Shown piece by piece: positions 10,227 through 60,665 of a DNA stretch of 64,000 nucleotides. The notes under the pieces were generated by a model, which made no database searches, was not told the DNA's origin, and was given only the letters and a program-made list of their open reading frames with translations. Position numbers and translations under genes: made by a program. Numbering within the stretch: position 1 is the stretch's first letter; each line of letters starts with the position of its first letter. The DNA is from Thermoprotei archaeon (GTDB lineage: Archaea; Thermoproteota; Thermoprotei; Gearchaeales; WAQG01): the NCBI GenBank assembly GCA_049976445.1, contig JBMFIF010000002.1:5115-69114 (forward strand), read 5' to 3'.

Positions 10227-12443
<2,217 letters not shown>

Positions 12444-25571: not shown

Positions 25572-25952
25572 TTACATACTAAGACTTAATAATGTTAATT
25601 CATCAATTGTTTGATTAAACAATGCCTCATAAAGACCAGCGACCCTCTCTAAAATAATAATACCTTTAGTTAACACGTTATACCTAAACTTTACTTGCAA
25701 CTCATCTATTGGAACAACATCAAAAGGAATTCTTAAAAACTCTTCTAATCTAGCAGAAAGTAATGCATAATATTTAAACTCCTTATTCATAGAATAAATG
25801 GCAATATCAACATCCCTAAAACTTTTTAACTCCACAAAACTACCAAATATGATTGCTAGAAGCACATCTTTTTCACTCTCAAAAAACTCTCTAATGGAAT
25901 TCATGACAGTTTTCTTATCAATCCTATAATACTTAAATCTTGAAAGCATCAC
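25572..25952 (-). CDS. minimal nucleotidyltransferase (MNT) antitoxin-type protein
   Basis: GSFVELKSFRDVDIAIY is the GS-x(n)-DxD NTase motif. Overlaps the upstream HEPN gene by 20 nt. Confidence 0.8.
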   Translation of the reverse strand: MMLSRFKYYRIDKKTVMNSIREFFESEKDVLLAIIFGSFVELKSFRDVDIAIYSMNKEFKYYALLSARLEEFLRIPFDVVPIDELQVKFRYNVLTKGIIILERVAGLYEALFNQTIDELTLLSLSM

Positions 25953-26355
25953 TAATCCTCCTAATAAAATTCATAACATTAACAAAATCACTTCTAATAT
26001 TCTCATATATCTTCTCGTCAATAATAATCCAATATCTATGAACAAGTAAATTTCGCAACTTAAACATGCTCACAAAATCCTTATACTCTTCATCAATCAA
26101 AAGACCCTTATCTCTTAAAATATTTAAGGCATGAATTGAAGATTCAGGTTCAACATTATAAAATCTCCTAACAATGTGAAGAGCTAAAGCACTCAAAGCT
26201 TCAGCAATCACAATGATATGATATCTAACTGCATACCTCTCAGTAAGACTTATTTCTTCAAACGACTTACTAACATAATCACTAATAATATTTATAGATT
26301 CCATAATATCTTTAATAAGTTTCTTAATAAAATCTCTATTAACATCCACTCTCAA
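25933..26355 (-). CDS. HEPN (DUF86) toxin-type protein
   Basis: RNLLVHRYW is the R-x4-H HEPN motif. About 140 aa. Paired with the MNT gene. Confidence 0.8.
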   Translation of the reverse strand: MRVDVNRDFIKKLIKDIMESINIISDYVSKSFEEISLTERYAVRYHIIVIAEALSALALHIVRRFYNVEPESSIHALNILRDKGLLIDEEYKDFVSMFKLRNLLVHRYWIIIDEKIYENIRSDFVNVMNFIRRISDAFKI

Positions 26356-26529: not shown

Positions 26530-26672
26530 AAAAGAAGGACAAACTTCACCCTTCAGGGTGGAGTAAATTTAAATACTCAGACACACTATACTCTACAGTA
26601 GCACCCATAAAGGGGTGTAACCCTCAAGACCTCGGGGAACCCTCGCACCTTCAGGGCGGGGAAGAGGTCAGA
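26526..26672 (+). repeat. tandem/nested IS200/IS605 right-end-like relics (tnpB-tail motif)
   Basis: tgataaaagaaggacaaacttcacccttcagggtgg (26526-26561) and ccttcagggcggggaagaggtcaga (26648-26672) are separated by about 86 nt. Joined, they equal the single copy at 35195-35243 on the opposite strand. Confidence 0.5.
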
Positions 26673-26983
26673 CAAAAATTTAACTATCAATAAAATAATT
26701 AACAATTTTTGAAATATAATATTATTTTGTTATCCTGAATATCCTGCTGTGAGTATAAATAAGTATGTGCTGTTTGTATTAGTTATTATGACTAATGTAT
26801 GATTGCTATTGACCTGTTGTGGTCCTACATCGGCATAAAGTGTTATTAATGTTTTTGGTGTTACGGATTGGGAGTCTTGTCGAATATTATAATATCTGTA
26901 CGGTGGAAATATTATATCGTTTGTGGGTATGTTTGGTATATTTTGGGATGCGTTAGAAGTGTAAATTCTAGTTCTCATGATAA

Positions 26984-28093
26984 CTAAATGAGTTCGTTAA
27001 TTTTAGTAGTAAGTCTTTTATATTCATCTTCAATTTTAAGTGCTAGTTCATCTGGGTTTAATTTCATCTTTATTTGTGCTATTAATGCTGTTCCGCCTGC
27101 TCCTACTCCTTCCTTCACATAACCATTTTCGTACGCTTTAAGTCCATAAAATTTTGATTTCGAAAAATTTAGTGTTGTGGCAATTATTGGTATTTTTTCG
27201 ATTTGGCTTACTAAACCTATAATATCGGAACTCCTGTCTTCTATAATCCATTTAGTGGTTCCAATTGCTACCTTGTCTAAATTAATATTCTTATGTTTCA
27301 ATAGTGCTAGCACTGAAGACATTTGAGTTCCACCGGCTAATAATACATGAGAGTTTATTTTTACTATGCCCTCAGTTAATCCTGCCATAGCTATCATCAC
27401 AGGATCACCAACTTTGCTCGCAGCAAGTAAAGGATTTTCTTTAGCTTGCTTGATACTTAGGTTAGCATTTTTTAAGCTCTCCTCAGCTATCCTTATTTTT
27501 AGATCATGCGGGTTATTAGCATCTGCACTACTTATTTTGTATCTAGCGTCATAACCAAGGGCTAAGAGAAAAGTTAGAGTGGTTGTAGTGCCACCTGGTA
27601 TACTTTCACCGATGAGAACAGTATCAGCTAATAATCCCAACTCTTTACCAAAAAGTTTAGCATTTTCATATATTGTGATCGCATCATCATATTTCATGGC
27701 GTTTCCAGTCCTTATATCATTACCGACAACACCACCTACATCTATGAAAGGAACTTTAGGTTTTACATAACAACCAGCGTTTACTACAAAGAAGGGTATG
27801 TTGAGTAGTTGTAATACTGTCCTAGTTATTATTGCGGGTGTTGGAATACCATCAGGCGTTGTTGGTATTACGTTGAAACTGATAACCTTACCATAAAAAA
27901 GATACTCTATATCACCAGTCGGAGTATATAGTGTTGCTTCGGGGTTAGCCCCAGCTATACTAAGACCAGGAATTTTTGATGTTAATGTTGATCCTATTAC
28001 ATAGACAGCTAGCAGGTTAGATTTTTCTATACGTTTAGTGAATTGTTCTCCTTTTTCAGGCATGTACGCATACATAATACTCATACAAACCAC
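26984..28093 (-). CDS. cobT: archaeal CobT-like protein (UPF0284; nicotinate-nucleotide:dimethylbenzimidazole phosphoribosyltransferase analogue)
   Basis: GSTLTSKIPGLSIAGANPEATLYTPTGDIEYL and ESIPGGTTT match the archaeal CobT-type family pattern. Located in the cobamide cluster. Confidence 0.6.
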   Translation of the reverse strand: MVCMSIMYAYMPEKGEQFTKRIEKSNLLAVYVIGSTLTSKIPGLSIAGANPEATLYTPTGDIEYLFYGKVISFNVIPTTPDGIPTPAIITRTVLQLLNIPFFVVNAGCYVKPKVPFIDVGGVVGNDIRTGNAMKYDDAITIYENAKLFGKELGLLADTVLIGESIPGGTTTTLTFLLALGYDARYKISSADANNPHDLKIRIAEESLKNANLSIKQAKENPLLAASKVGDPVMIAMAGLTEGIVKINSHVLLAGGTQMSSVLALLKHKNINLDKVAIGTTKWIIEDRSSDIIGLVSQIEKIPIIATTLNFSKSKFYGLKAYENGYVKEGVGAGGTALIAQIKMKLNPDELALKIEDEYKRLTTKINELI

Positions 28094-29035
28094 CTAAACA
28101 GGATATGCTCCACATGTTCTACAATATTTTGAATCCGCTGGCACTCCAGCACCACAAAATGAGCATCTTTTTTCATTAGATTTGGGTTTAGGTATATTAC
28201 CGATAATCTCTTTGAACAATTTATAATAATATGCCTGTTCATAATCTCTTAGAATTATTTCTTTGCCCAATTTTTCGAACTCTTCTTTATTAATCATTTT
28301 ACTAATTATCTGTGTGAGGGTTGTGGAACCACTGCCAATTTCGATGGGATCTTTAGTTCTCCATACAATTTCGTCAGGTAGTAATCCTTCTATTGCTTTT
28401 CTGACAATCCATTTTCCATAAATACTGTTTCTTTCTTCATGAACCTTAAATTCAGGAGGAATGCTCAATGCAAAATCCACGAATTCACGATCAATATAAG
28501 GTTGTTCAATCTTTAACCCTAGGCTTTCACCTAGAGGAACAGCTGAAAAGAACCAACGTTCTGATAATTCTTTAATATATTTTTCAAGTTCTTGTGGTTT
28601 CATTTTATACATGTATGAGTAGCCGGCAAACAATTCATCACCACCATCACCTGTTACTATTGATTTGAGACCTAGCTGTTTCGCATAGGATAGTGCTATA
28701 TAAATTGTAATACTATTACGTATTTCCATCGGATCAAAAGTCCTAAGCACGTGAATGACATTTCTAACAGCCTCAAGGGCTTCATCCAATTTGAATATTT
28801 TTATCTTATGATCAAACCCTAAAAATTCTGTTACACGCTTAGAATAATAAAGATCAGGCCCAGGATTTTGTTCAAAAATTGCAGTAATAGCAACCGGTTT
28901 TAGGTTTTTCATTAAAAAGGCTAAAACACTGGTGTCAAGACCCCCAGAAAGAAGTATTGCTTCTCCTTGATGTCTTTTGACTGAAGCTTCCAGCTTATTA
29001 AGAAGTTCTTTTGTTAAAATATTCACTGTAATCAT
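28094..29035 (-). CDS. asparagine synthetase-like ATP pyrophosphatase domain protein (no glutaminase domain) with C-terminal zinc ribbon
   Basis: PP-loop LLSGGLDTS and an AsnB C-domain-like core (GDGGDELFAGY). C-terminal CSFCGAGVPADSKYCRTCG. Confidence 0.6.
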   Translation of the reverse strand: MITVNILTKELLNKLEASVKRHQGEAILLSGGLDTSVLAFLMKNLKPVAITAIFEQNPGPDLYYSKRVTEFLGFDHKIKIFKLDEALEAVRNVIHVLRTFDPMEIRNSITIYIALSYAKQLGLKSIVTGDGGDELFAGYSYMYKMKPQELEKYIKELSERWFFSAVPLGESLGLKIEQPYIDREFVDFALSIPPEFKVHEERNSIYGKWIVRKAIEGLLPDEIVWRTKDPIEIGSGSTTLTQIISKMINKEEFEKLGKEIILRDYEQAYYYKLFKEIIGNIPKPKSNEKRCSFCGAGVPADSKYCRTCGAYPV

Positions 29036-29036
29036 A

Positions 29037-29051
29037 TGGTTGGATTATCCA
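29037..29051. promoter_or_regulatory. candidate operator copy 1 (TGGATTATCCA palindrome) at the asnB-like promoter/start
   Basis: The exact 15-mer tggttggattatcca lies between a TATA-like tttaaata (minus strand, about 29059-29066) and the ATG at 29035. Confidence 0.4.
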
Positions 29052-29123
29052 ATCAAGTATTTAAACTTTTTGTATCCTCATGAAGATTAAACAATATGTC
29101 AGAAACGTTAGCTTTAAATTCTT

Positions 29124-29138
29124 TGGTTGGATTATCCA
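29124..29138. promoter_or_regulatory. candidate operator copy 2 (TGGATTATCCA palindrome) at the btuF-like promoter/start
   Basis: Identical 15-mer tggttggattatcca, downstream of the TATA-like ctttaaatt (about 29111-29119). It overlaps the annotated TTG start at 29127; the in-frame GTG at 29145 is an alternative leaderless start. Confidence 0.4.
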
Positions 29139-30383
29139 GACTTGGTGAATAACTTGAGTGATAGGAATACTCGTTACTTATTAAGTCTAATAATTATAAT
29201 AGTGATAGTACTGGGAGTTACTATACCTCTTTATATGGAAATTAATTCTTTAAGAGATGAAATTTCTAGATTACGTAATGATATATCAGCACTTAGTTTA
29301 AGTTCTAAGCAACTTACCTCACAGTTTAATAGTAGTCTCACACAATTAAATGCAGCTTATAAGAGCCTTGAAGATAGGTATAATAAATTATTTCAACAGT
29401 ATTCATCATTGTCTGAAAGTATTAAGTATCCTTTTACAATTACTGATGCTCTTGGAAGAACTGTAACGATAGTTTCAAGGCCAGTTCGAGTTATAAGTAC
29501 GGCACCTAGTGTGACAGAAATGCTTTTTGCTATAAATGCAGAAAAACTTATTGTAGGTGTTGATAAGTATTCAGATTATCCGCCTACAGTAAAAGATTTA
29601 GTTAAAAATAGTACAATTAAGCTGGTTGGTGGTTTTTCGACTGTTGATGTGGAGGCTATTGTAGCACTAAAGCCTGATATTGTATTTATGACACCGGGCG
29701 TGCAAACACCTTTCGTATATAGGTTAGCAGAACTTGGACTAACCGTCGTCGCTTTAAAGGAAGATAGTATATCGGATGTGTTTGATTCGATAATGCTCGT
29801 AGGGAGAATTCTTGATAAGATTGATGGGGCATTAAACGTTGTCGCATCTATGAAGTCTAAAATCACTTATGCGTTCTCAAAGGTTGAGAATTATATTAAA
29901 TCTGTTAATATTACAAGGGTTAAAGTGTATTGGGAAGTATGGCCTGAACCAATATATACCGTTGGTTCACAAAATTTTATAAATGATATAATTACACTAG
30001 CAGGAGGGGTTAATATTTTTGGTGATATAAAATCAGGCTATCCAGTCGTAAGTTCTGAGGAAGTTATAAACAAAACTCCTGATGTTATAATAACAACTGA
30101 TCATGGTGGGGTTTATGGATCGCCACAGGATGTATTAAATATGATCAGGAATAGAACTGGATGGAATGTAATACCAGCTATAAAAAGTAATAGAGTTTAT
30201 GTGTTAACGGGCCAGTTTGGGTCTATGTTTATAAGGCCTGGTCCAAGAGTTGCAGATGCAATTCTTCAACTTGCCGTAATATTATATCCTGAGGCATTTG
30301 GTATGAGTAAAATCATGATACCGAACATAATAAGCACATCGTTTAACGTTACAACATATATTAGTTTGTTAATTGTTTCATAA
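29127..30383 (+). CDS. BtuF/FhuD-type (class III) substrate-binding protein, membrane-anchored, with N-terminal coiled coil
   Basis: N-terminal TM segment, a heptad-like Ser/Leu-rich stretch, then a periplasmic-binding-protein core (RVISTAPSVTEMLFAI, ALKPDIVFM, TPDVIITT). Followed by FecCD permease and ATPase genes. Confidence 0.7.
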   Translation: MDYPDLVNNLSDRNTRYLLSLIIIIVIVLGVTIPLYMEINSLRDEISRLRNDISALSLSSKQLTSQFNSSLTQLNAAYKSLEDRYNKLFQQYSSLSESIKYPFTITDALGRTVTIVSRPVRVISTAPSVTEMLFAINAEKLIVGVDKYSDYPPTVKDLVKNSTIKLVGGFSTVDVEAIVALKPDIVFMTPGVQTPFVYRLAELGLTVVALKEDSISDVFDSIMLVGRILDKIDGALNVVASMKSKITYAFSKVENYIKSVNITRVKVYWEVWPEPIYTVGSQNFINDIITLAGGVNIFGDIKSGYPVVSSEEVINKTPDVIITTDHGGVYGSPQDVLNMIRNRTGWNVIPAIKSNRVYVLTGQFGSMFIRPGPRVADAILQLAVILYPEAFGMSKIMIPNIISTSFNVTTYISLLIVS

Positions 30384-31410
30384 TACAATGAGCAGTAATT
30401 ATATACAAAGGAGATATTCCCGCCTTATTTTTTCTGTTATTGTTCTAATCATGTTAGTAGGAGTTTTAAGTATATTATCCATTAGTGTTGGTTCTGCGTT
30501 TATAAATCTGCCGGAATCTTTAAAAGCTTTGGTTGATTCTGATAACGTTGATGTATATACAAGAATTATAATATGGGAGATTAGAGTTCCTAGGACATTA
30601 AGCGCTATTTTTATAGGAATGTTGATGGCTTTAGCTGGGCTTTTTATGCAGACTGTTACTCTGAATCCTCTTGCTGATCCTTATTTAACAGGTATGGCTT
30701 CTGGTGCACTGTTAGGTGTTAGTATAACTATTGTGCTTTCACCTTTAATCGTTAGTCCTTATGTTATAGTTATCTCAGCGTTCTTTGGAGCCTTGTGCGC
30801 CATGATATTAACACTTCTAATTGCAAGTAAATTTCGCTTAGATCCAATAGGACTCATACTGGGAGGTGTTGCAGTCTCTATGATTTTTTACTCATTTTCT
30901 GCGATACTTCAGTTTATTGGAGGTGAAAAGATGGTTATGATAATTATATGGAGTCTTGGAAGCTTGAGTACTGCATCATGGTCAAGAACATGGTTTACTG
31001 GCATTACTGCAATAATTCTTATACCCCTTTCTATAATTATGTACAAATCGTTGAATGCTTTATTACTTGGTGATGAGAATGCACAAAGTATTGGTGTAAG
31101 TCCGAAGTTAACACGATCATTTTCCTTGCTAATATCCTCAATTGCCACGGCAATCTCAGTGTCAATGTTTGGTGTGATAGGCTTTGTTGGATTAGTAGCA
31201 CCTCATTTAGCACGTCTCGCATTAAGGAGCGGTGATCATTTAATAGTCATACCAGTCACATGTCTTGTTGGATCCGCTATCATGCTTTTAAGTGATGTGA
31301 TAGCTAGAATAATAGGTTCTCCTGGAGAATTTCCGTTAACTCCTATAATGAGTTTAATTGGTGCTCCGCTACTTATTTATTTAATGAGTAGGAGGTTTAA
31401 AAATGGTTAA
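30373..31410 (+). CDS. btuC: FecCD/BtuC-family ABC permease
   Basis: About 10-TM protein with a typical FecCD pattern (RVPRTLSAIFIGMLMALAGLFMQTVTLNPLADPYLTG ... GAPLLIYLM). Confidence 0.85.
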   Translation: MFHNTMSSNYIQRRYSRLIFSVIVLIMLVGVLSILSISVGSAFINLPESLKALVDSDNVDVYTRIIIWEIRVPRTLSAIFIGMLMALAGLFMQTVTLNPLADPYLTGMASGALLGVSITIVLSPLIVSPYVIVISAFFGALCAMILTLLIASKFRLDPIGLILGGVAVSMIFYSFSAILQFIGGEKMVMIIIWSLGSLSTASWSRTWFTGITAIILIPLSIIMYKSLNALLLGDENAQSIGVSPKLTRSFSLLISSIATAISVSMFGVIGFVGLVAPHLARLALRSGDHLIVIPVTCLVGSAIMLLSDVIARIIGSPGEFPLTPIMSLIGAPLLIYLMSRRFKNG

Positions 31411-32179
31411 ACTAATCATAGATAATCTTTCTGTTAATTATGGTTCAATAAAAGCATTAGAAGATATTAGTATAAAACTTGACAAAGGCATGATGGTATC
31501 AATAATAGGACCTAACGGTTCTGGAAAGACAACACTTCTCAGATCTATAGCAAGAATAGTAAAACCAGTAAAAGGTGTAATCTATATTGATGGAAAAAAT
31601 ACTAACGAACTATCATTAAAAGATCTAGCTCATCATGTATCATACACATCTACATTGAAAGTAAAAGAGGGTTTTGAACTCACAGTGGGCGATATAGTTT
31701 TTATGGGTAGATATCCAAGAACTGGATTTATGATGAGTCATACTGATGAAAGAATTGTGAACGATGTATTAAATAAGTTTCGCATTACTCATTTAATGAA
31801 TAGAAAAATAGATGAGCTTAGCGATGGTGAACGGCAAAAAACCTTTTTAGCAAGAGCCTTAGCTCAAGAATCAGAAATAATACTTGTAGATGAACCATTA
31901 GCGCATCTTGATCTAAAAGCACAACTTGAAGTCTTAAAAATACTTAAAAATGAAGCAAACGATGGAAAGCTTGTAATAATGACCTCACACGAGATAGACT
32001 TACCGATTAAATACAGTGATGTATTAATAGTAATGAAAAAAGGAGAAATATTAGCAGCAGGAAAACCTAATGAAATACTAACAGAAAAAATAATAGAAAA
32101 TGCTTATGGTGTTAAATGTCGTATAATCAAAGATAAAGAATATTCACTTATAGTACTTCTTGACACACTCAGTGATTAG
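31403..32179 (+). CDS. btuD: ABC ATPase (BtuD/FepC type)
   Basis: Walker A GPNGSGKTT, signature LSDGERQ, Walker B IILVDEP. AGGAGGT SD 6 nt upstream of the ATG. Confidence 0.85.
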   Translation: MVKLIIDNLSVNYGSIKALEDISIKLDKGMMVSIIGPNGSGKTTLLRSIARIVKPVKGVIYIDGKNTNELSLKDLAHHVSYTSTLKVKEGFELTVGDIVFMGRYPRTGFMMSHTDERIVNDVLNKFRITHLMNRKIDELSDGERQKTFLARALAQESEIILVDEPLAHLDLKAQLEVLKILKNEANDGKLVIMTSHEIDLPIKYSDVLIVMKKGEILAAGKPNEILTEKIIENAYGVKCRIIKDKEYSLIVLLDTLSD

Positions 32180-32181
32180 TA

Positions 32182-33282
32182 ATGAAGGAATTAAAACAAC
32201 CAGTACACGGTGGTAGAGTATGGGATGCAGCAGAAAAACTCAACATAAACGTTGAAAAGATTATAGATTTTAGTACAAATACAAATCCATTAGGACCTCC
32301 AAAACAATTAATAACAACATTAATAAAAAATATTAACACTGTTGCTTATTATCCAGATCCTGACTATAGAACATTAAGGATGGAATTGGCAAGGTTTTAT
32401 AACATTAATGAAGAGAATATTATAGTTGGTAATGGTGCAACTGAACTTATACATCTATTTGCACAAACATTCATCTCAGAAAATGACAGAGTAATAATAC
32501 CAATACCCACGTTTGAAGAATACCAATATGCATCACAGAAAGTTAGCGCAAGAATTATTTATATAAAGTCAAAAAACAATATGCACATAAACATAGACAA
32601 AATAATATCAAAAATGAACAATACAAAGGTCATATTTGTATGTAATCCAAATAACCCAACAGGAATATTAGAAAAACAAGAAGATATACTCAATCTAATA
32701 AAAGAGGCTAATAAGAGAAACGTACTAGTTTTTCTTGATGAAAGCTTTATGGATCTAGTAGTTACAAAAAAGCCGTACACGTTAATAAGATCAGTAAACA
32801 TGTTTGATAATCTTTTTATAATAAGATCACTAACAAAAATCTTCAGCATACCCGGATTAAGGATAGGTTTTGGTGTATCTTCAAAGTACTTAATAAAAGA
32901 ACTTAATAAACATAAAATACCATGGAATGTCTCAACACTTATTGAAAAAACTATTCCAGAAGCACTAAAATATGCAAGACAATATCTAAAAACATCAAGA
33001 AAAATAATCAAACAAGAAAGAAACTATATGATAAGTGAACTATCGAAAATTGATGGTATTAAAGTAATAAGCGGTGATGCTAATTTTCTCTTCATAGATA
33101 TAAGTGAAACTGGACTCACATCATCAGAATTAGCAGATCAATTAATAAAACATCGTATACTAATACGAGATTGTAGCACTTTTACAGGACTGAACAACTC
33201 GTACATAAGAATAGCAATAAAGAAACACCGAGAAAACATACTACTAATAAATGCTCTGAAAACAATAGTGATAAGAAAATGA
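32182..33282 (+). CDS. cobD: L-threonine-O-3-phosphate decarboxylase (CobD; class I/II aminotransferase fold)
   Basis: N-terminal VHGGRVW, HisC-like PLP fold (SLTKIFSIPGLRIGF carries the PLP Lys). Context directly upstream of cbiB. Confidence 0.7.
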   Translation: MKELKQPVHGGRVWDAAEKLNINVEKIIDFSTNTNPLGPPKQLITTLIKNINTVAYYPDPDYRTLRMELARFYNINEENIIVGNGATELIHLFAQTFISENDRVIIPIPTFEEYQYASQKVSARIIYIKSKNNMHINIDKIISKMNNTKVIFVCNPNNPTGILEKQEDILNLIKEANKRNVLVFLDESFMDLVVTKKPYTLIRSVNMFDNLFIIRSLTKIFSIPGLRIGFGVSSKYLIKELNKHKIPWNVSTLIEKTIPEALKYARQYLKTSRKIIKQERNYMISELSKIDGIKVISGDANFLFIDISETGLTSSELADQLIKHRILIRDCSTFTGLNNSYIRIAIKKHRENILLINALKTIVIRK

Positions 33283-34235
33283 ACTCCTTCCACACAAGTA
33301 TAATAATTTTAGTATTAGCAGTACTCATAGATATATTATTTGGAGAACCTCCACTCAAAGTTCATCCAGTAGTTTGGGTTGGTAGATTAATTAAATATTT
33401 GGAACGTTACTGTCATGGAGGAAGCACTCAACTAGAGAAAATTAAAGGTACGATGATGGCTATATCAGTAATTATAATATCCATCACAATAACATACATC
33501 GCTTTAAAAATAGTACAGTCTTATCTCGGTTTATATGGATACATAATAATAGCATCTATAATATTCAAAACAACTTTTTCAATACGATCCATGAAAGATC
33601 ACATAAAACCAATAGCTATCTCGTACGAGAAAAATAATAAAGAAAAGGCCAAAGTATTATTGTCACGAGTCGTAAGAAGAAATCCCTGGCAACTCACTGA
33701 TGAACAAATAATCTCAGCTGCAATAGAGACGACAGCAGAAGGCATAGTAGATGGTATAACATCAGCATTGTTCTATTACAGTATACTTGGAATACCAGGT
33801 GCAATAATGCAACGAGTTATAAACACATTGGACTCAATGGTTGGGTATAAAGATGAATATTATAAGAATGTAGGATGGTTCTCAGCAAAATTAGATACAA
33901 TAATAAACTTTATACCAGCTCGTCTCACAGCAATTACTATAGTACTGGCATCATTAATTTTAAAAAAAGATTATAAATTAAGCTTTAAAATAGCATTAAC
34001 AGACCATAAAAATACTGAAAGTCTTAATGCGGGATGGCCAATGTCAGCAATGGCAGGCGCTCTAAGAATACAACTAGAAAAACCCGGACATTACAAACTT
34101 GGGATTCCAATGCAAAAACTAAAGCCAGAACTCATATACGATGCATTAAACATAATGTATACATCAACAACACTTTTCATAATAACAATAATAATTCCTA
34201 TACTTATTCTCTTTAATATCTACCTATTTTTATAA
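33279..34235 (+). CDS. cbiB: adenosylcobinamide-phosphate synthase CbiB
   Basis: DILFGEPPLKVHPVVWVGRLI N-terminal signature and polytopic membrane topology. Confidence 0.8.
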   Translation: MNSFHTSIIILVLAVLIDILFGEPPLKVHPVVWVGRLIKYLERYCHGGSTQLEKIKGTMMAISVIIISITITYIALKIVQSYLGLYGYIIIASIIFKTTFSIRSMKDHIKPIAISYEKNNKEKAKVLLSRVVRRNPWQLTDEQIISAAIETTAEGIVDGITSALFYYSILGIPGAIMQRVINTLDSMVGYKDEYYKNVGWFSAKLDTIINFIPARLTAITIVLASLILKKDYKLSFKIALTDHKNTESLNAGWPMSAMAGALRIQLEKPGHYKLGIPMQKLKPELIYDALNIMYTSTTLFIITIIIPILILFNIYLFL

Positions 34236-35243: not shown

Positions 35244-35298
35244 CGAAGAGTGAAGCTTAAATAAATTTTTCAAATAGAAGAATCGTAAGTGAACAAAA

Positions 35299-36411
35299 AT
35301 GAATAACACTCAAAACGTAAAAATCTATTTTAAAGATAATACACTCATCATCGAATCAGCATCAGAAATGGAAGTACTGAGTAGTGCTGTATTCAATGGT
35401 GGAAGACAAAAAGCACAATATATAATAAACTATAAGGTTTCTAAAACCTTTGATGATCCAAAACCAGCACTATACCTAAAAAATGTAATAGAAAAACTAG
35501 GATTACCTCACGATTCAACAATAGGATTAATGACAGCTGCTGATGTTCACAATGCTTCAATAATTAATGAAGGACCAGTTACAGCAATAATTACTGCAGG
35601 CCTTTCAAATACAGCAACCGCCGGTGATGATATAGCAGTACAAAACATCGGAACGATTAATATGATTATTATAGTAAATGGATTACTAAACGAAAACGCT
35701 TTTGTAGATGCAATAATAACTGCCACAGAAGCAAAAACAGTAGCACTTGATCAATTAGATATTATAAGTAGAGTATCAAGAAAAAGAGCAACAGGAACAA
35801 CAACTGATTCTATAGTAATAGCATGCACACAACAAGGTGAAAGATATGAATATGCAGGCACAGCGACAAAAATAGGTAATATGATAGCTAAAAGTGTCAT
35901 AAAAGGTGTTTTAGAAGCCATAAAACTCCAGGAAAATATAACATCATCTAGACCAATATTAAAAAGATTAGAAGAAAGAGGAATTACACTAAAGGATCTC
36001 GTAGAAACGGGTATGGAACTTTATATACATCACCCAAGCATGGGAACAATAGAGAACGCAAGAAAAACATTAGAAGAAATATTGATAGAATCAATGAATG
36101 ATATAAATGTTGCATCATTAATTATTGCCGGAATAAGGATAGAGGAGGAAGGAAGAAAGGGTTTAATACCTGGTCTTACAAGAGAAGAATTTGAAAAAGA
36201 TCCTGTAAATCTAGTGGCTGATGAGTTAATAGGAATGGCTATAGCTGATTACATAGCAGGTTCAAGAGGTATTTTTGAATATGTCAGGTTTGATAGAATA
36301 AAACCAGGCATTATCAGAAATCTAGGGCCCTTCATGGATGACATAATCGGAGCATTAATAGGTGGAGCGTCATCACTCATGTATACAAAATTACTTAAAA
36401 AACAGAAGTGA
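35299..36411 (+). CDS. cbiZ: adenosylcobinamide amidohydrolase CbiZ fused to a C-terminal CobZ/PgpA-like domain (CbiS-like architecture)
   Basis: CbiZ blocks LSSAVFNGG, IGLMTAADV, GTINMIIIV and AIITATEAKTVAL lie in residues 1 to about 210. An extra C-terminal domain of about 150 aa (GLIPGLTREEFEKDPVNLVADELIGMAIADYIAG) follows, as in the archaeal fusion with alpha-ribazole-phosphate phosphatase. Confidence 0.6.
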   Translation: MNNTQNVKIYFKDNTLIIESASEMEVLSSAVFNGGRQKAQYIINYKVSKTFDDPKPALYLKNVIEKLGLPHDSTIGLMTAADVHNASIINEGPVTAIITAGLSNTATAGDDIAVQNIGTINMIIIVNGLLNENAFVDAIITATEAKTVALDQLDIISRVSRKRATGTTTDSIVIACTQQGERYEYAGTATKIGNMIAKSVIKGVLEAIKLQENITSSRPILKRLEERGITLKDLVETGMELYIHHPSMGTIENARKTLEEILIESMNDINVASLIIAGIRIEEEGRKGLIPGLTREEFEKDPVNLVADELIGMAIADYIAGSRGIFEYVRFDRIKPGIIRNLGPFMDDIIGALIGGASSLMYTKLLKKQK

Positions 36412-37151
36412 TCAAGTTGATAAAACAATTAAAAGCCCTCTTATCATTTCTTACAATAATACCAGTAAAAGAGGAACACGATCTAAAAACAATTGCAGAA
36501 GGTATACACCTCTTTCCATTGATAGGATTTTTCACCGGAATCCTAACAGGATTTATAGCATACCTTATCTCAAGAGTATACCTAAGTCTTTTAACGGGAA
36601 TAATAGCAGTATCATTCCTGGAATTTATAACAGGACTTCACCATTTTGACGCATTGTTAGATTTTGGTGATGGTATTATGGCTAAAACAACACCAGAAAA
36701 GAAAATAGAAATTATGCATGATAAACAAACAGGAAGCGGCGGATTCTGGTTAGGTATTACAATAATTGGAATAAAAATATTTTCAATATCACAATTACAT
36801 GGATTACAACTCTTTACAGCAATAATTCTTTCAGAAATCTCCGCAAAACTTTCAATGGTAATAGGAATGTGGCTAGGCAACCCAGCTTACCCCTCTAGTA
36901 CAGCAGTACCGTTCATAGAAGAAGCACATAAAAACCCTAAAAAACCATTAATAGCTCTTATATTCTCATTATTCATAGCATTACTCTTCATGACAGAAGG
37001 AATATTAATGATAATTACAAGCATAATAGTGGCAGTAATCATTGAACATCTATCACAAAAACATTTTAAAGGTATAACTGGCGATGTATTGGGATCCATG
37101 GATGAAATAACATCAGCTCTCTCATTATTAGTATTAGTGAGCATAATATGA
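36408..37151 (+). CDS. cobS: cobalamin-5'-phosphate (adenosylcobinamide-GDP ribazoletransferase) synthase CobS
   Basis: LSFLTIIPV N-terminal motif, HHFDALLDFGD, membrane topology. 4-nt overlaps with both neighbours. Confidence 0.75.
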   Translation: MIKLIKQLKALLSFLTIIPVKEEHDLKTIAEGIHLFPLIGFFTGILTGFIAYLISRVYLSLLTGIIAVSFLEFITGLHHFDALLDFGDGIMAKTTPEKKIEIMHDKQTGSGGFWLGITIIGIKIFSISQLHGLQLFTAIILSEISAKLSMVIGMWLGNPAYPSSTAVPFIEEAHKNPKKPLIALIFSLFIALLFMTEGILMIITSIIVAVIIEHLSQKHFKGITGDVLGSMDEITSALSLLVLVSII

Positions 37152-37768
37152 TAAAAATTAAAGCTCTAATCATGGCAGGAGGAAAAGCAACCAGAATGAA
37201 TAACATAGAAAAACCCCTCATAAAAATATGCGGAACCACAATGATAGAAAGAATACTCAATGCACTAAAGAACACTAAGTGCATAGAAGATGTATATATA
37301 ACAACAAGTAAAAATACGAAAAACACAGAAATCCTACTTAAAACCTTAGGATATAAAACAATAACAACTTCAGGAGAAGATTATGTAGAAGACTTAAAAA
37401 ACACAATTATAAAACTAAACATAAAAGATCCCATATTAGTATTACCATCCGATCTACCATTAATAACACCAAATACAATAGAACAATTAATCAATATTTA
37501 CATACAAAACAACTCTCCACCAACAACGACGTTTTACATACCATTGCAACTACTAAAAACAAAAATACGAACAAACTACATAGAACAAATAAATAATATA
37601 AAAGTAATACCATCTGGCATTAGTATAATAAAAGGATCATACATTACGCAAAATGTAATACCGCAAATAAACATAATAGTCGAAAACACAGAATTAAGCG
37701 TTAACGTGAATACGTTATTAGATATAAAAATTGCACAATCAATTTTATGCAAAAGAAATAATAAGTAG
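37148..37768 (+). CDS. cobY: adenosylcobinamide-phosphate guanylyltransferase CobY (MobA-like NTP transferase)
   Basis: ALIMAGGKATRM nucleotide-binding N-terminus. About 200 aa. Position after cobS. Confidence 0.6.
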   Translation: MIKIKALIMAGGKATRMNNIEKPLIKICGTTMIERILNALKNTKCIEDVYITTSKNTKNTEILLKTLGYKTITTSGEDYVEDLKNTIIKLNIKDPILVLPSDLPLITPNTIEQLINIYIQNNSPPTTTFYIPLQLLKTKIRTNYIEQINNIKVIPSGISIIKGSYITQNVIPQINIIVENTELSVNVNTLLDIKIAQSILCKRNNK

Positions 37769-37802: not shown

Positions 37803-37902
37803 TTATACTCAAGAAGATACTAATGAAATTAAAGAAACATTACTAAAAATTAATACCATGGTCAATGAACCGAAAAATAGCTCGATGATACTTAAAACAA
37901 TA
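37803..37902 (+). repeat. direct repeat DR-A, copy 1 (about 100 nt)
   Basis: ttatactcaagaagatactaatgaaattaaag...aatagctcgatgatacttaaaacaata aligns with 40488-40590 (about 80 percent by eye). It includes an ATG plus 16 codons ending in a stop here. Confidence 0.6.
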
Positions 37903-40487: not shown

Positions 40488-40590
40488 TTATACTCAGGAA
40501 GATATTAATAAAATTAAAGATAACTCACTATCAAAAATTGGTATGATAGTTAATGAGCTGGCGAATAGTTCGATGATACTTAAAACAATA
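40488..40590 (+). repeat. direct repeat DR-A, copy 2 (about 103 nt), forming the 5' end of the permease ORF
   Basis: See 37803-37902. An IS right-end-like relic (gaagtcctaagctttaaagggcgagaagatcat, about 40425-40457) lies just upstream. Confidence 0.6.
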
Positions 40591-55865: not shown

Positions 55866-56150
55866 GTTGGTAGTTGAATCATTTTAGGATAAATTTTATA
55901 CTGTTTTAAGAAATGATGGGTATGAATTGGTTCATACTAATCTGGTTCCACTACCGTTCTAGAGGGAAAAGAAATCAAATGCATAAGAGGACCCTACAAT
56001 CATATCAGGAGGAAGCTCCAGAAGAAGGGACTCCTAAAAAAGGATAGAGGAGGCATGAGCCCTCTTGAACTGGCAAATGAGGTTGGAGGATAAAGCCCCC
56101 AGCTGAACATCAGAAGCTCAGCCTTTTAGGAGTAGCTCATATAATCGACA
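55866..56150 (+). mobile_element. non-autonomous IS200/IS605-derived element: repeat DR-B copy 1 plus tnpB-tail relics
   Basis: 55866-55953 matches 60517-60605 and contains the hairpin gtatgaa-ttgg-ttcatac. 56000-56140 contains ...gaactggcaaatgaggttggaggataaagcccccagctgaacatcagaagctcagccttttaggagtagctc (tnpB-tail pattern). Confidence 0.45.
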
Positions 56151-60516: not shown

Positions 60517-60665
60517 TTGGGTAGTCGAATCATTTTAGGATAAATTTTATACTATCTTAAGAAAAGATGAGTATGGATTGGTTCATACTAACCTGACTCC
60601 ACCACATATTTATCAAGTAGCATTTTTCAAACTACAACACACACAATTATGTAGCAAAGCAAAAC
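60517..60665 (+). mobile_element. repeat DR-B copy 2 fused to a MITE-type right end
   Basis: 60517-60605 matches 55866-55953 (hairpin gtatgga-ttgg-ttcatac with a G-U-compatible change). 60625-60662 caaactacaacacacacaattatgtagcaaagcaaaac resembles the right end of the 12.5-kb MITE. Confidence 0.45.

Follow-up and report, generated by a model that had tools for sequence, protein, structure and literature searches.

A 19-bp palindrome at two divergent promoters of an archaeal B12 island is a candidate protein-bound operator of a cobamide regulon

Introduction

In bacteria, riboswitches are the main means of controlling B12 uptake and synthesis. We found no reports of how archaea sense B12 supply, even though some groups, ammonia-oxidising archaea among them, count as B12 producers. 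The gene classes under bacterial B12 riboswitches comprise biosynthesis, uptake, utilisation and cobalt supply (PMC7689651). Here, we describe a palindrome at the two divergent promoters of a B12 island, one serving an asnB-like/cobT operon and the other btuFCD-cobD-cbiB, in a 64,000-nt stretch of DNA from a Thermoprotei archaeon (hereafter the window; contig JBMFIF010000002.1, positions 5,115 to 69,114, assembly GCA_049976445.1). With a probability of about 0.58, its two copies are operators of a dimeric winged-helix transcription factor (TF) controlling a cobamide regulon, the likely binder being a winged helix-turn-helix (wHTH)-DUF4443 protein and the likely signal cobamide sufficiency.

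ThiR is the archaeal thiamine counterpart of the riboflavin regulator RbkR. RbkR itself is an archaeal winged-helix protein that replaces the flavin mononucleotide riboswitch (PMC5397151), and the paper describing it makes no mention of B12. The system presented here resembles RbkR in its candidate winged-helix regulator, in a palindrome recovered by comparative genomics at vitamin biosynthesis and transport promoters, and in the co-localisation of the regulator gene. Vitamin, operator sequence and sensor differ, the sensor of RbkR being a CTP-dependent riboflavin kinase with a known ligand.

MDR1, LrpA, Phr and TrmB-family proteins are examples of archaeal repressors that occupy the region separating TATA box and transcription start. 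Like the present palindrome, their sites are dyads downstream of TATA at which RNA polymerase is expected to be blocked after TBP/TFB binding, but the protein families and operator sequences are others. To our knowledge, none of these repressors controls cobamide genes, save TrmB indirectly, which reportedly acts in this way on cobalamin genes of Halobacterium. DtxR/IdeR operators are 19-bp 9-1-9 palindromes at uptake promoters that are bound by a dimeric wHTH protein; their half-site sequence appears to differ, and unlike theirs the regulon described below consists mostly of cobamide-handling, not metal-handling, genes. CarH, in which a B12-binding domain (PF02310/PF02607) is joined to a MerR-type helix-turn-helix (HTH), responds to light and not to the supply of B12. 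Together with LitR it represents the bacterial B12-dependent photoreceptor repressors, whose DNA binding is cobamide-dependent (PMC7689651). Neither candidate regulator of the palindrome has PF02310 or PF02607, and the DUF4443 fold matches the AspRS/GatE insertion domain. The structurally characterised relative, PH0730 of Pyrococcus horikoshii (PDB 2P8T; Pfam PF14544, PH0730-like_N plus CggR_N wHTH), was deposited as a hypothetical protein; no paper that we found addresses its function, ligand or DNA site, and a TF census gives just the family name. Nor did we find literature on DUF4443, DUF7839, this palindrome or an archaeal B12-responsive regulator, a mention in a 2003 comparative study of B12 regulation being possible. 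Vitamin-responsive regulons built on a TF and its operator are an already known kind; here, the candidate sensor family is uncharacterised and the operator new.

Results and Discussion

The first-pass annotation of the window had reported an exact 15-nt direct repeat at both divergent promoters, containing the 11-bp palindrome TGGAT-T-ATCCA. The 15-mer TGGTTGGATTATCCA was found exactly twice, both times on the + strand (29037–29051 and 29124–29138, 87 nt apart), and the 11-bp core TGGATNATCCA had no further exact copy anywhere in the 64 kb. Taken alone, the repeat is only modestly unusual, since at least one exact 15-mer repeat within 200 nt, as seen once in the real window, also arose in 4% of first-order Markov simulations. 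The idea of a palindromic operator stood, but its unit is not the 11-bp core; it is a 19-bp palindrome (9-1-9) with the consensus TGGTTGGATWATCCAACCA, or TGGTTGGAT-W-ATCCAACCA when written as half-sites, and its dyad symmetry fits a dimeric HTH protein. Base counts over 32 non-ascertained half-sites, drawn from TF-fetched loci (see below) and the window lineage, were T30 G32 G28 T25 T32 G28 G32 A32 T31. The window holds two sites with up to three mismatches to the 19-bp TGGTTGGATNATCCAACCA versus 0.03 expected, a number reached in none of 100 shuffles, and allowing four mismatches returned the same two sites and none further (0.1 expected). Copy 1 (29037–29055, no strand assigned) reads TGGTTGGATTATCCAATCA, with one mismatch to TGGTTGGATWATCCAACCA; copy 2 (29124–29142, also without strand) reads TGGTTGGATTATCCAGACT, with three. 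Both are slightly worn versions of the 19-bp palindrome, and the direct repeat at the divergent promoters is explained by two imperfect palindromes that happen to retain the same 15 bases on the + strand.

Each copy lies between a TATA-like box and a start codon, as the annotation had also proposed, and the geometry is canonical. On the − strand, the TATA box of the asnB-like/cobT operon, TTTAAATA (29058–29065), is followed by two bases, the palindrome, one base and the ATG at 29035. Counting the A of this asnB-like ATG as +1, the box, as read from the sequence, occupies −30..−23 and the palindrome about −20..−2. On the + strand, the TATA box of the btuFCD-cobD-cbiB operon, TTTAAATT (29113–29120), is followed by three bases, the palindrome at 29124–29142 and a conserved GTG at 29145, taken as the btuF start codon. 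A TTG at 29142 is a possible alternative; the start given by the open reading frame (ORF) lister, a TTG at 29127, falls within the palindrome, and orthologs favour the GTG. A TATA box at −30..−23 is the canonical spacing for archaeal leaderless mRNA, and its position relative to the ATG therefore implies a leaderless asnB-like/cobT transcript; both divergent operons are apparently leaderless. The TATA-like boxes immediately 5′ of the palindrome were kept in orthologs, and the position of the palindrome relative to TATA box and start codon is that of an operator, as judged from a predicted start site. A protein dimer on the palindrome would cover the whole TATA-to-start stretch.

In agreement with the first-pass annotation, which had seen no B12 riboswitch, no Rfam family reached its gathering score in the whole window (cmscan), and at E ≤ 1 over 20–40 kb only a weak HgcC match, and no cobalamin riboswitch, was returned. 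A cobalamin riboswitch (RF00174) would occupy the 5′ leader of the regulated gene as a conserved, structured RNA containing a B12 box, and the promoter geometry here leaves no leader. The regulon outlined below has the same gene set as that of the bacterial riboswitch (BtuFCD, ECF-type, CbiM, NiCoT, corrin biosynthesis and salvage, B12 utilisation), but whereas the riboswitch is an RNA aptamer in the leader, the present element is a DNA palindrome upstream of the predicted start. The combination of a DNA palindrome, no leader and no Rfam match therefore implies a protein sensor, and the element is most likely the DNA operator of a protein-based B12 regulon, filling in archaea the role of the bacterial B12 riboswitch. 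While the consensus can fold as an RNA hairpin (−9.9 kcal/mol), a palindrome upstream of the predicted transcription start would be outside the RNA, and copy 2 in the window would fold at only −3.1 kcal/mol. Mismatches are uncompensated, and a role as a hairpin is unlikely.

Orthologous loci were fetched via close asnB-like homologs of 90, 75, 75 and 73% identity (L001–L009). The palindrome was kept at both promoters of every locus fetched and was mostly perfect: orthologs of copy 1 were perfect or had one mismatch in L001, L003 and L004–L009, and those of copy 2 had zero to two mismatches in L001, L003, L004–L006 and L008. In L004–L008, an EamA transporter gene in either orientation sits between the two promoters, each of which keeps its own palindrome, and no palindrome occurs at the EamA promoter. 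This insertion may be regarded as a natural experiment, and the retention of both palindromes supports a function for them. The centre-to-centre distance of the two sites varies (87, 84 or 75 nt, or more than 1 kb), which argues that the sites act independently.

These comparisons bear on whether the palindrome is a regulatory protein site at all. That it is instead a chance repeat, for which the 4% of simulated windows would speak, a DNA or RNA hairpin, a core promoter element or the relic of a mobile element is highly improbable. Every close relative carries the palindrome at the two promoters and retains both copies even where these are separated, dozens of unrelated lineages carry it at the same post-TATA position, and neighbouring promoters (EamA, CbiS, aldo-keto reductase) are without it. 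Flanking repeats and transposase genes are absent. On these comparative data, the non-regulatory explanation is largely refuted.

The search for further sites upstream of cob/btu or B12-dependent genes, which the annotation had suggested as a check, was positive across genomes and metagenomes. Scanning one genome per GTDB species for exact matches to the 17-mer core GGTTGGATNATCCAACC returned at least 120 loci. Among the genome matches listed, 38 were from Thermoproteota (33 Bathyarchaeia, together with Nitrososphaeria, Nitrosopumilales, Methylarchaceae and Hecatella). A TATA-like box lay within 15 nt in 33 of these 38 and in 8 of the 82 other matches listed (Fisher's exact test, p = 8e-17), and location inside a long ORF showed the opposite trend (6/38 versus 57/82, p = 4e-8). 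The central base was A or T in 35/38 of the Thermoproteota matches and evenly spread over the four bases in the others. Downstream genes among the archaeal matches listed encoded BtuF or BtuFCD (12 loci), a secreted PQQ-type beta-propeller (8) or an ECF-S-like membrane protein of ~190 amino acids (6), and further included CobD, BtuC and the cobalt/nickel transporter NiCoT.

The metagenome scan, with the full 19-mer, yielded 108 contigs. A labelled gene begins no more than 110 nt from the site in 72 contigs: ECF-S-like in 47, beta-propeller in 13, BtuF in 8, asnB-like in 3 and BtuC in 1, the ECF-S-like start codon lying −1 to +18 nt past the site in 46 of 47 cases. Some of the remaining sites, classified using Pfam, NCBIfam and BLAST, adjoin genes for CbiM (with a CbiX-CbiC fusion transcribed divergently), a chelatase subunit of the ChlI type, corrinoid proteins (B12-binding plus B12-binding_2) or MtaB, a radical-SAM gene that neighbours a second asnB-like lineage, or genes for CobZ alpha-ribazole phosphatases that are 36–53% identical to the CobZ half of the CbiS encoded in the window. 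In total, ~81 of the 108 sites adjoin a recurrent family, most of these being cobamide, cobalt or corrinoid genes, and about a dozen sites within ORFs of high-GC contigs look like chance matches. Where a clear TATA box can be scored, its gap to the palindrome is mostly 0–5 nt. A DUF4430 gene (Pfam E = 1.3e-8) usually follows the ECF-S-like gene, and at locus L238 this pair is followed by a gene for an alpha/alpha-toroid protein. Transcobalamin-type B12 binders have DUF4430 as their C-terminal domain (PMC4350170). The palindrome is thus conserved at orthologous promoters and recurs at related genes, as in a regulon, and the two sites of the window are real members of a widespread operator family.

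A gene for a wHTH-DUF4443 protein (Pfam E = 1.2e-30, with CggR_N and PH0730-like_N), that is, a wHTH DNA-binding domain with a C-terminal DUF4443, accompanies ~30 palindrome-bearing loci at 33–100% identity, including genomes of both Bathyarchaeia and Nitrososphaeria. It lies 60 nt to 2 kb from the site in three fixed arrangements: divergent from the ECF-S-like gene at 60–94 nt from the site, last in a palindrome-ECF-S-DUF4430-TF operon, or ~1.5 kb away. Among ECF-S loci with enough flank, 9 of 11 have the gene. The linkage was also seen from the other side, in six loci fetched via DUF4443 homologs alone, five of which were evaluable and one of which ended at a contig end. All five carried the palindrome, with up to two mismatches, at the ECF-S-like promoter, the TF gene being part of the same operon or divergon, giving six sites in 76 kb versus 0 expected.

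A second candidate is a wHTH-DUF7839 gene that stands divergent from the palindrome at two Bathyarchaeia loci, L119 (beside cobD) and L122 (beside NiCoT). If this protein, or an unrecognised factor, bound a real cobamide-regulon operator in the lineage of the window and perhaps generally, DUF4443 would be a co-regulated passenger; the lack of a DUF4443 gene in the window and in the fragments of its relatives would then be expected, as would the fact that DUF4443 is mostly tied to the ECF-S-like operon and not to btuF or asnB-like sites. We consider this quite unlikely. The L119 and L122 loci are 77% identical and amount to one observation, and the DUF7839 family (84 clusters from one Bathyarchaeia subgroup and Methanobacteriales) has a narrower range than the palindrome, whereas the DUF4443 linkage spans Bathyarchaeia and Nitrososphaeria and passed the independent TF-anchored test. 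The two families have only the wHTH in common (hhalign probability 38%).

With wHTH-DUF4443 as the favoured binder, we propose that the 19-bp palindrome fills the TATA-to-start stretch of the two divergent operons, asnB-like/cobT and btuFCD-cobD-cbiB, such that a bound dimer would leave TBP/TFB space on the TATA box and would block RNA polymerase recruitment or promoter opening. Uptake and salvage genes would be shut off as a consequence, repression being what established archaeal promoter biology predicts for a protein bound at this site. The DUF4443 (PH0730-like) protein would be encoded elsewhere in this genome, as its co-localisation with the palindrome in other lineages suggests. The annotation had envisaged a protein-bound operator at an archaeal repressor position tied to cobamide genes, which the data support. 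For the cobamide response itself, the content of the regulon points to cobamide sufficiency as the probable signal, with the ligand-bound form binding DNA.

Several observations weigh against this proposal. The three mismatches of window copy 2 all fall within one half-site, the start-proximal one. As the annotation had remarked, no regulator gene is evident in the cluster: no recognisable DNA-binding protein is encoded among the called ORFs scanned (~14–44 kb), six of which had no Pfam match, no DUF4443 homolog (profile hidden Markov model, best hmmsearch E = 0.13) and no DUF7839 homolog (tblastn) occurs in the 64-kb window, and the cognate gene was not found within the relatives' fragments. 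The DUF4443 fold resembles PH0730 and the AspRS/GatE insertion domain, not known B12-binding folds, and no His or Cys is invariant across the family; structure therefore gives no support for either a cobamide or a metal ligand. The scans covered exact matches only, and the site catalogue is biased and incomplete. For some recurrent targets no B12 link is obvious; these include the secreted beta-propellers, the site ahead of purS-purL, the non-coding leader, and individual sites close to TFB or an integrase. Lastly, distant asnB-like salvage clusters, with asnB-like proteins of 59% (L244) and 52% identity (L245/246), are without the palindrome, which is therefore lineage-restricted and not intrinsic to such promoters.

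The same operator and the same repression could also answer to a signal other than cobamide, such as a metal (cobalt or some other), a precursor of corrin or nutrient status in general. The targets include the cobalt transporters CbiM and NiCoT as well as Peripla_BP_2/FecCD transporters, which elsewhere carry iron chelates or haem, the wHTH is weakly similar to iron-dependent repressor and MntR (profile search, E 0.004–0.01), and 9-1-9 is also the layout of the boxes of the DtxR/IdeR metal repressors. Many targets, however, handle the finished cofactor (DUF4430 proteins, the salvage and nucleotide-loop enzymes CobD, CbiB, CobT and CobZ, and corrinoid protein/MtaB), the invariant His or Cys expected of a classical metal site is absent from DUF4443, and no DtxR-type gene was noticed among the annotated neighbours of the sites. 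We therefore judge a signal other than cobamide to be unlikely.

At genes for uptake, salvage and biosynthesis, the palindrome follows the TATA box after 0–5 nt. At those for corrinoid proteins and MtaB (L139, L185, L232), it is placed immediately upstream of the TFB recognition element (BRE) and TATA box (CCA-TAAAGCTTTATAA), with the gene 50–76 nt beyond. Archaeal activators typically bind upstream of BRE/TATA, and repressors downstream of TATA. One factor, bound when B12 is plentiful, could switch acquisition off and B12-dependent enzymes on. This two-mode idea is offered as a hypothesis because it draws on three loci, where the TATA element is itself palindromic. In its widest form, wHTH-DUF4443 proteins would be archaeal B12-status sensors, one factor on TGGTTGGATWATCCAACCA repressing cobamide and cobalt uptake, salvage and biosynthesis from sites downstream of TATA and activating corrinoid-dependent methyltransferase genes from sites upstream of BRE/TATA, across Bathyarchaeia, Nitrososphaeria (including Nitrosopumilales) and the thermophile-like lineage of the window. 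We hold this proposal tentatively, at somewhat less than even chances.

The analysis yields an operator sequence whose place in the promoter is defined, a candidate family of regulators for which a crystal structure exists although no function is known, and a regulon for annotating genes of uncultured Bathyarchaeia and Nitrososphaeria, including candidate B12-capture proteins and the asnB-like enzyme. Were DUF4443 proteins the sensors, the regulon would point to new B12-handling proteins, among them the ECF-S-like/DUF4430/alpha-toroid capture system, the secreted beta-propellers and the asnB-like enzyme, and perhaps also to a small RNA. Were the effector confirmed, they would form a new class of cobamide-sensing TF unrelated to CarH.

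Several members of the wider set of loci deserve mention in their own right. Secreted, membrane-anchored PQQ_2/BamB-type beta-propellers (~430 amino acids) are the second commonest gene directly downstream of the palindrome (L055, L066, L067, L084, L090, L099, L101, L112 and 13 metagenome loci, e.g. L150:3713 and L166:3008). The BtuG protein of Bacteroides is a beta-propeller that captures B12, and by analogy the archaeal proteins could be B12-capture proteins. In three Bathyarchaeia genomes (− strands; L011:2200–2520, L062:7350–7670, L077:7210–7530), a strong TATA box and the palindrome precede ~150 nt of conserved non-coding sequence with no ORF, ending in the conserved hairpin CGTTGGGGTTyAGCTT...AGTTrGnCCCCAACG, for which there was no Rfam match; this leader could be a small RNA of the same regulon. 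The palindrome of Nitrosopumilales btuF is common to a divergent 698-amino-acid gene (L118:845–2941, − strand; L202), the product of which has an unusual architecture of ArsR-type HTH (DUF7347), ATP-cone and NrdD-like (anaerobic ribonucleotide reductase) domains. At purS-purL, the palindrome and an adjacent TATA box lie ~220–240 nt upstream, beside a purM-like gene (L037:4267, L154:192, L201:4250), with no cobamide link evident. At L238:8685–9386, a gene of RbkR architecture (MarR-type HTH plus CTP-dependent riboflavin kinase) adjoins the DUF4443 gene, and a methylmalonyl-CoA mutase/MeaB/CobA cluster lies 3 kb beyond it. The matches at L165:2798, L172 and L181 were set aside as coincidental. 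There, the 19-mer core centres an inverted repeat of more than 50 nt, GTTCTGGTCTGCCAAC...GTTGGCAGACCAGAAC, which has neither ORFs nor a TATA box in its vicinity, and the element is a different one.

The B12 island itself comprises genes on both sides of the two operators. To the left, the first gene encodes the asnB-like protein (28094–29035, − strand; 313 amino acids), which has, of asparagine synthase, the synthetase domain only, together with a Zn ribbon (Pfam Asn_synthase, E = 1.6e-40), and the second, labelled cobT-like in the annotation, could be refined to a true archaeal-type CobT, a nicotinate-mononucleotide-dependent phosphoribosyltransferase (26984–28093, − strand; NCBIfam TIGR00303, 354 bits versus a cutoff of 240). 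To the right, all on the + strand, lie the genes for a btuF-like substrate-binding protein with an N-terminal membrane anchor and a coiled coil (29145–30383; Pfam Peripla_BP_2, E = 3.2e-34; NCBIfam BtuF match below the family cutoff), a btuC-like FecCD permease (30373–31410), a btuD-like ATPase (31403–32179), a cobD-type aminotransferase (32182–33282) and cbiB (33279–34235). These coding regions adjoin or overlap, which suggests that cobD and cbiB share one operon with btuFCD. An aldo-keto reductase gene comes before cbiS (35293–36411; CbiZ plus CobZ, NF038002), which is followed by cobS (36408–37151) and a cobY-like nucleoside triphosphate transferase gene (37148–37768; + strand for all three); cbiS, cobS, the cobY-like gene and the aldo-keto reductase gene have no upstream palindrome at up to four mismatches.

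Proteins of the asnB-like type are encoded within cobamide salvage clusters (CobD, CbiB, CbiZ/CbiS, CobS, CobY-like, CobT) of several distant archaeal lineages, examples besides the window gene (28094–29035, −) being L244:5164–6066, L245:7001–7942 and L159, and a small radical-SAM gene is often near the asnB-like gene in those clusters. The asnB-like protein could represent a hitherto unrecognised enzyme that acts in the salvage or remodelling of cobamides. At the divergent asnB-like/cobD promoter of L244 (4990–5010), another palindrome, GTAGGATTTAAATCCTAC, with a similar GGAT...ATCC core, is centred on the TATA box and could be the form that the operator takes in another lineage. At L245 (6840–6975; the 52% ortholog, source-named Methanomethylicia), the asnB-like salvage operon is preceded by an inverted repeat, GCTTTGTGGCTTAAT ... 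ATTAAGCCACAAAGC, with arms ~110 nt apart.

Just past cobT, an overlapping, toxin-antitoxin-like pair encodes a HepT-like ribonuclease and an MNT-type nucleotidyltransferase (25572–26355, − strand). The 628-nt gap between HepT and cobT contains a local GC peak (26550–26700, + strand) of 0.47–0.49 versus 0.25–0.30 around it. This segment gave the weak Rfam HgcC match (25.4 bits versus a gathering score of 50, E = 0.027), has a stable predicted RNA fold (−39 kcal/mol, z = −3.4) and may correspond to a small non-coding RNA. The window also contains further exact repeats, namely a 27-nt plus 15-nt pair (55876–55940 and 60527–60591, ~4.65 kb apart), a 21-nt pair (37882–37902 and 40570–40590) and a 45-nt pair (10910–10954 and 11729–11773), the translation of the last, read by eye, being a P-loop (Walker A-like) motif.

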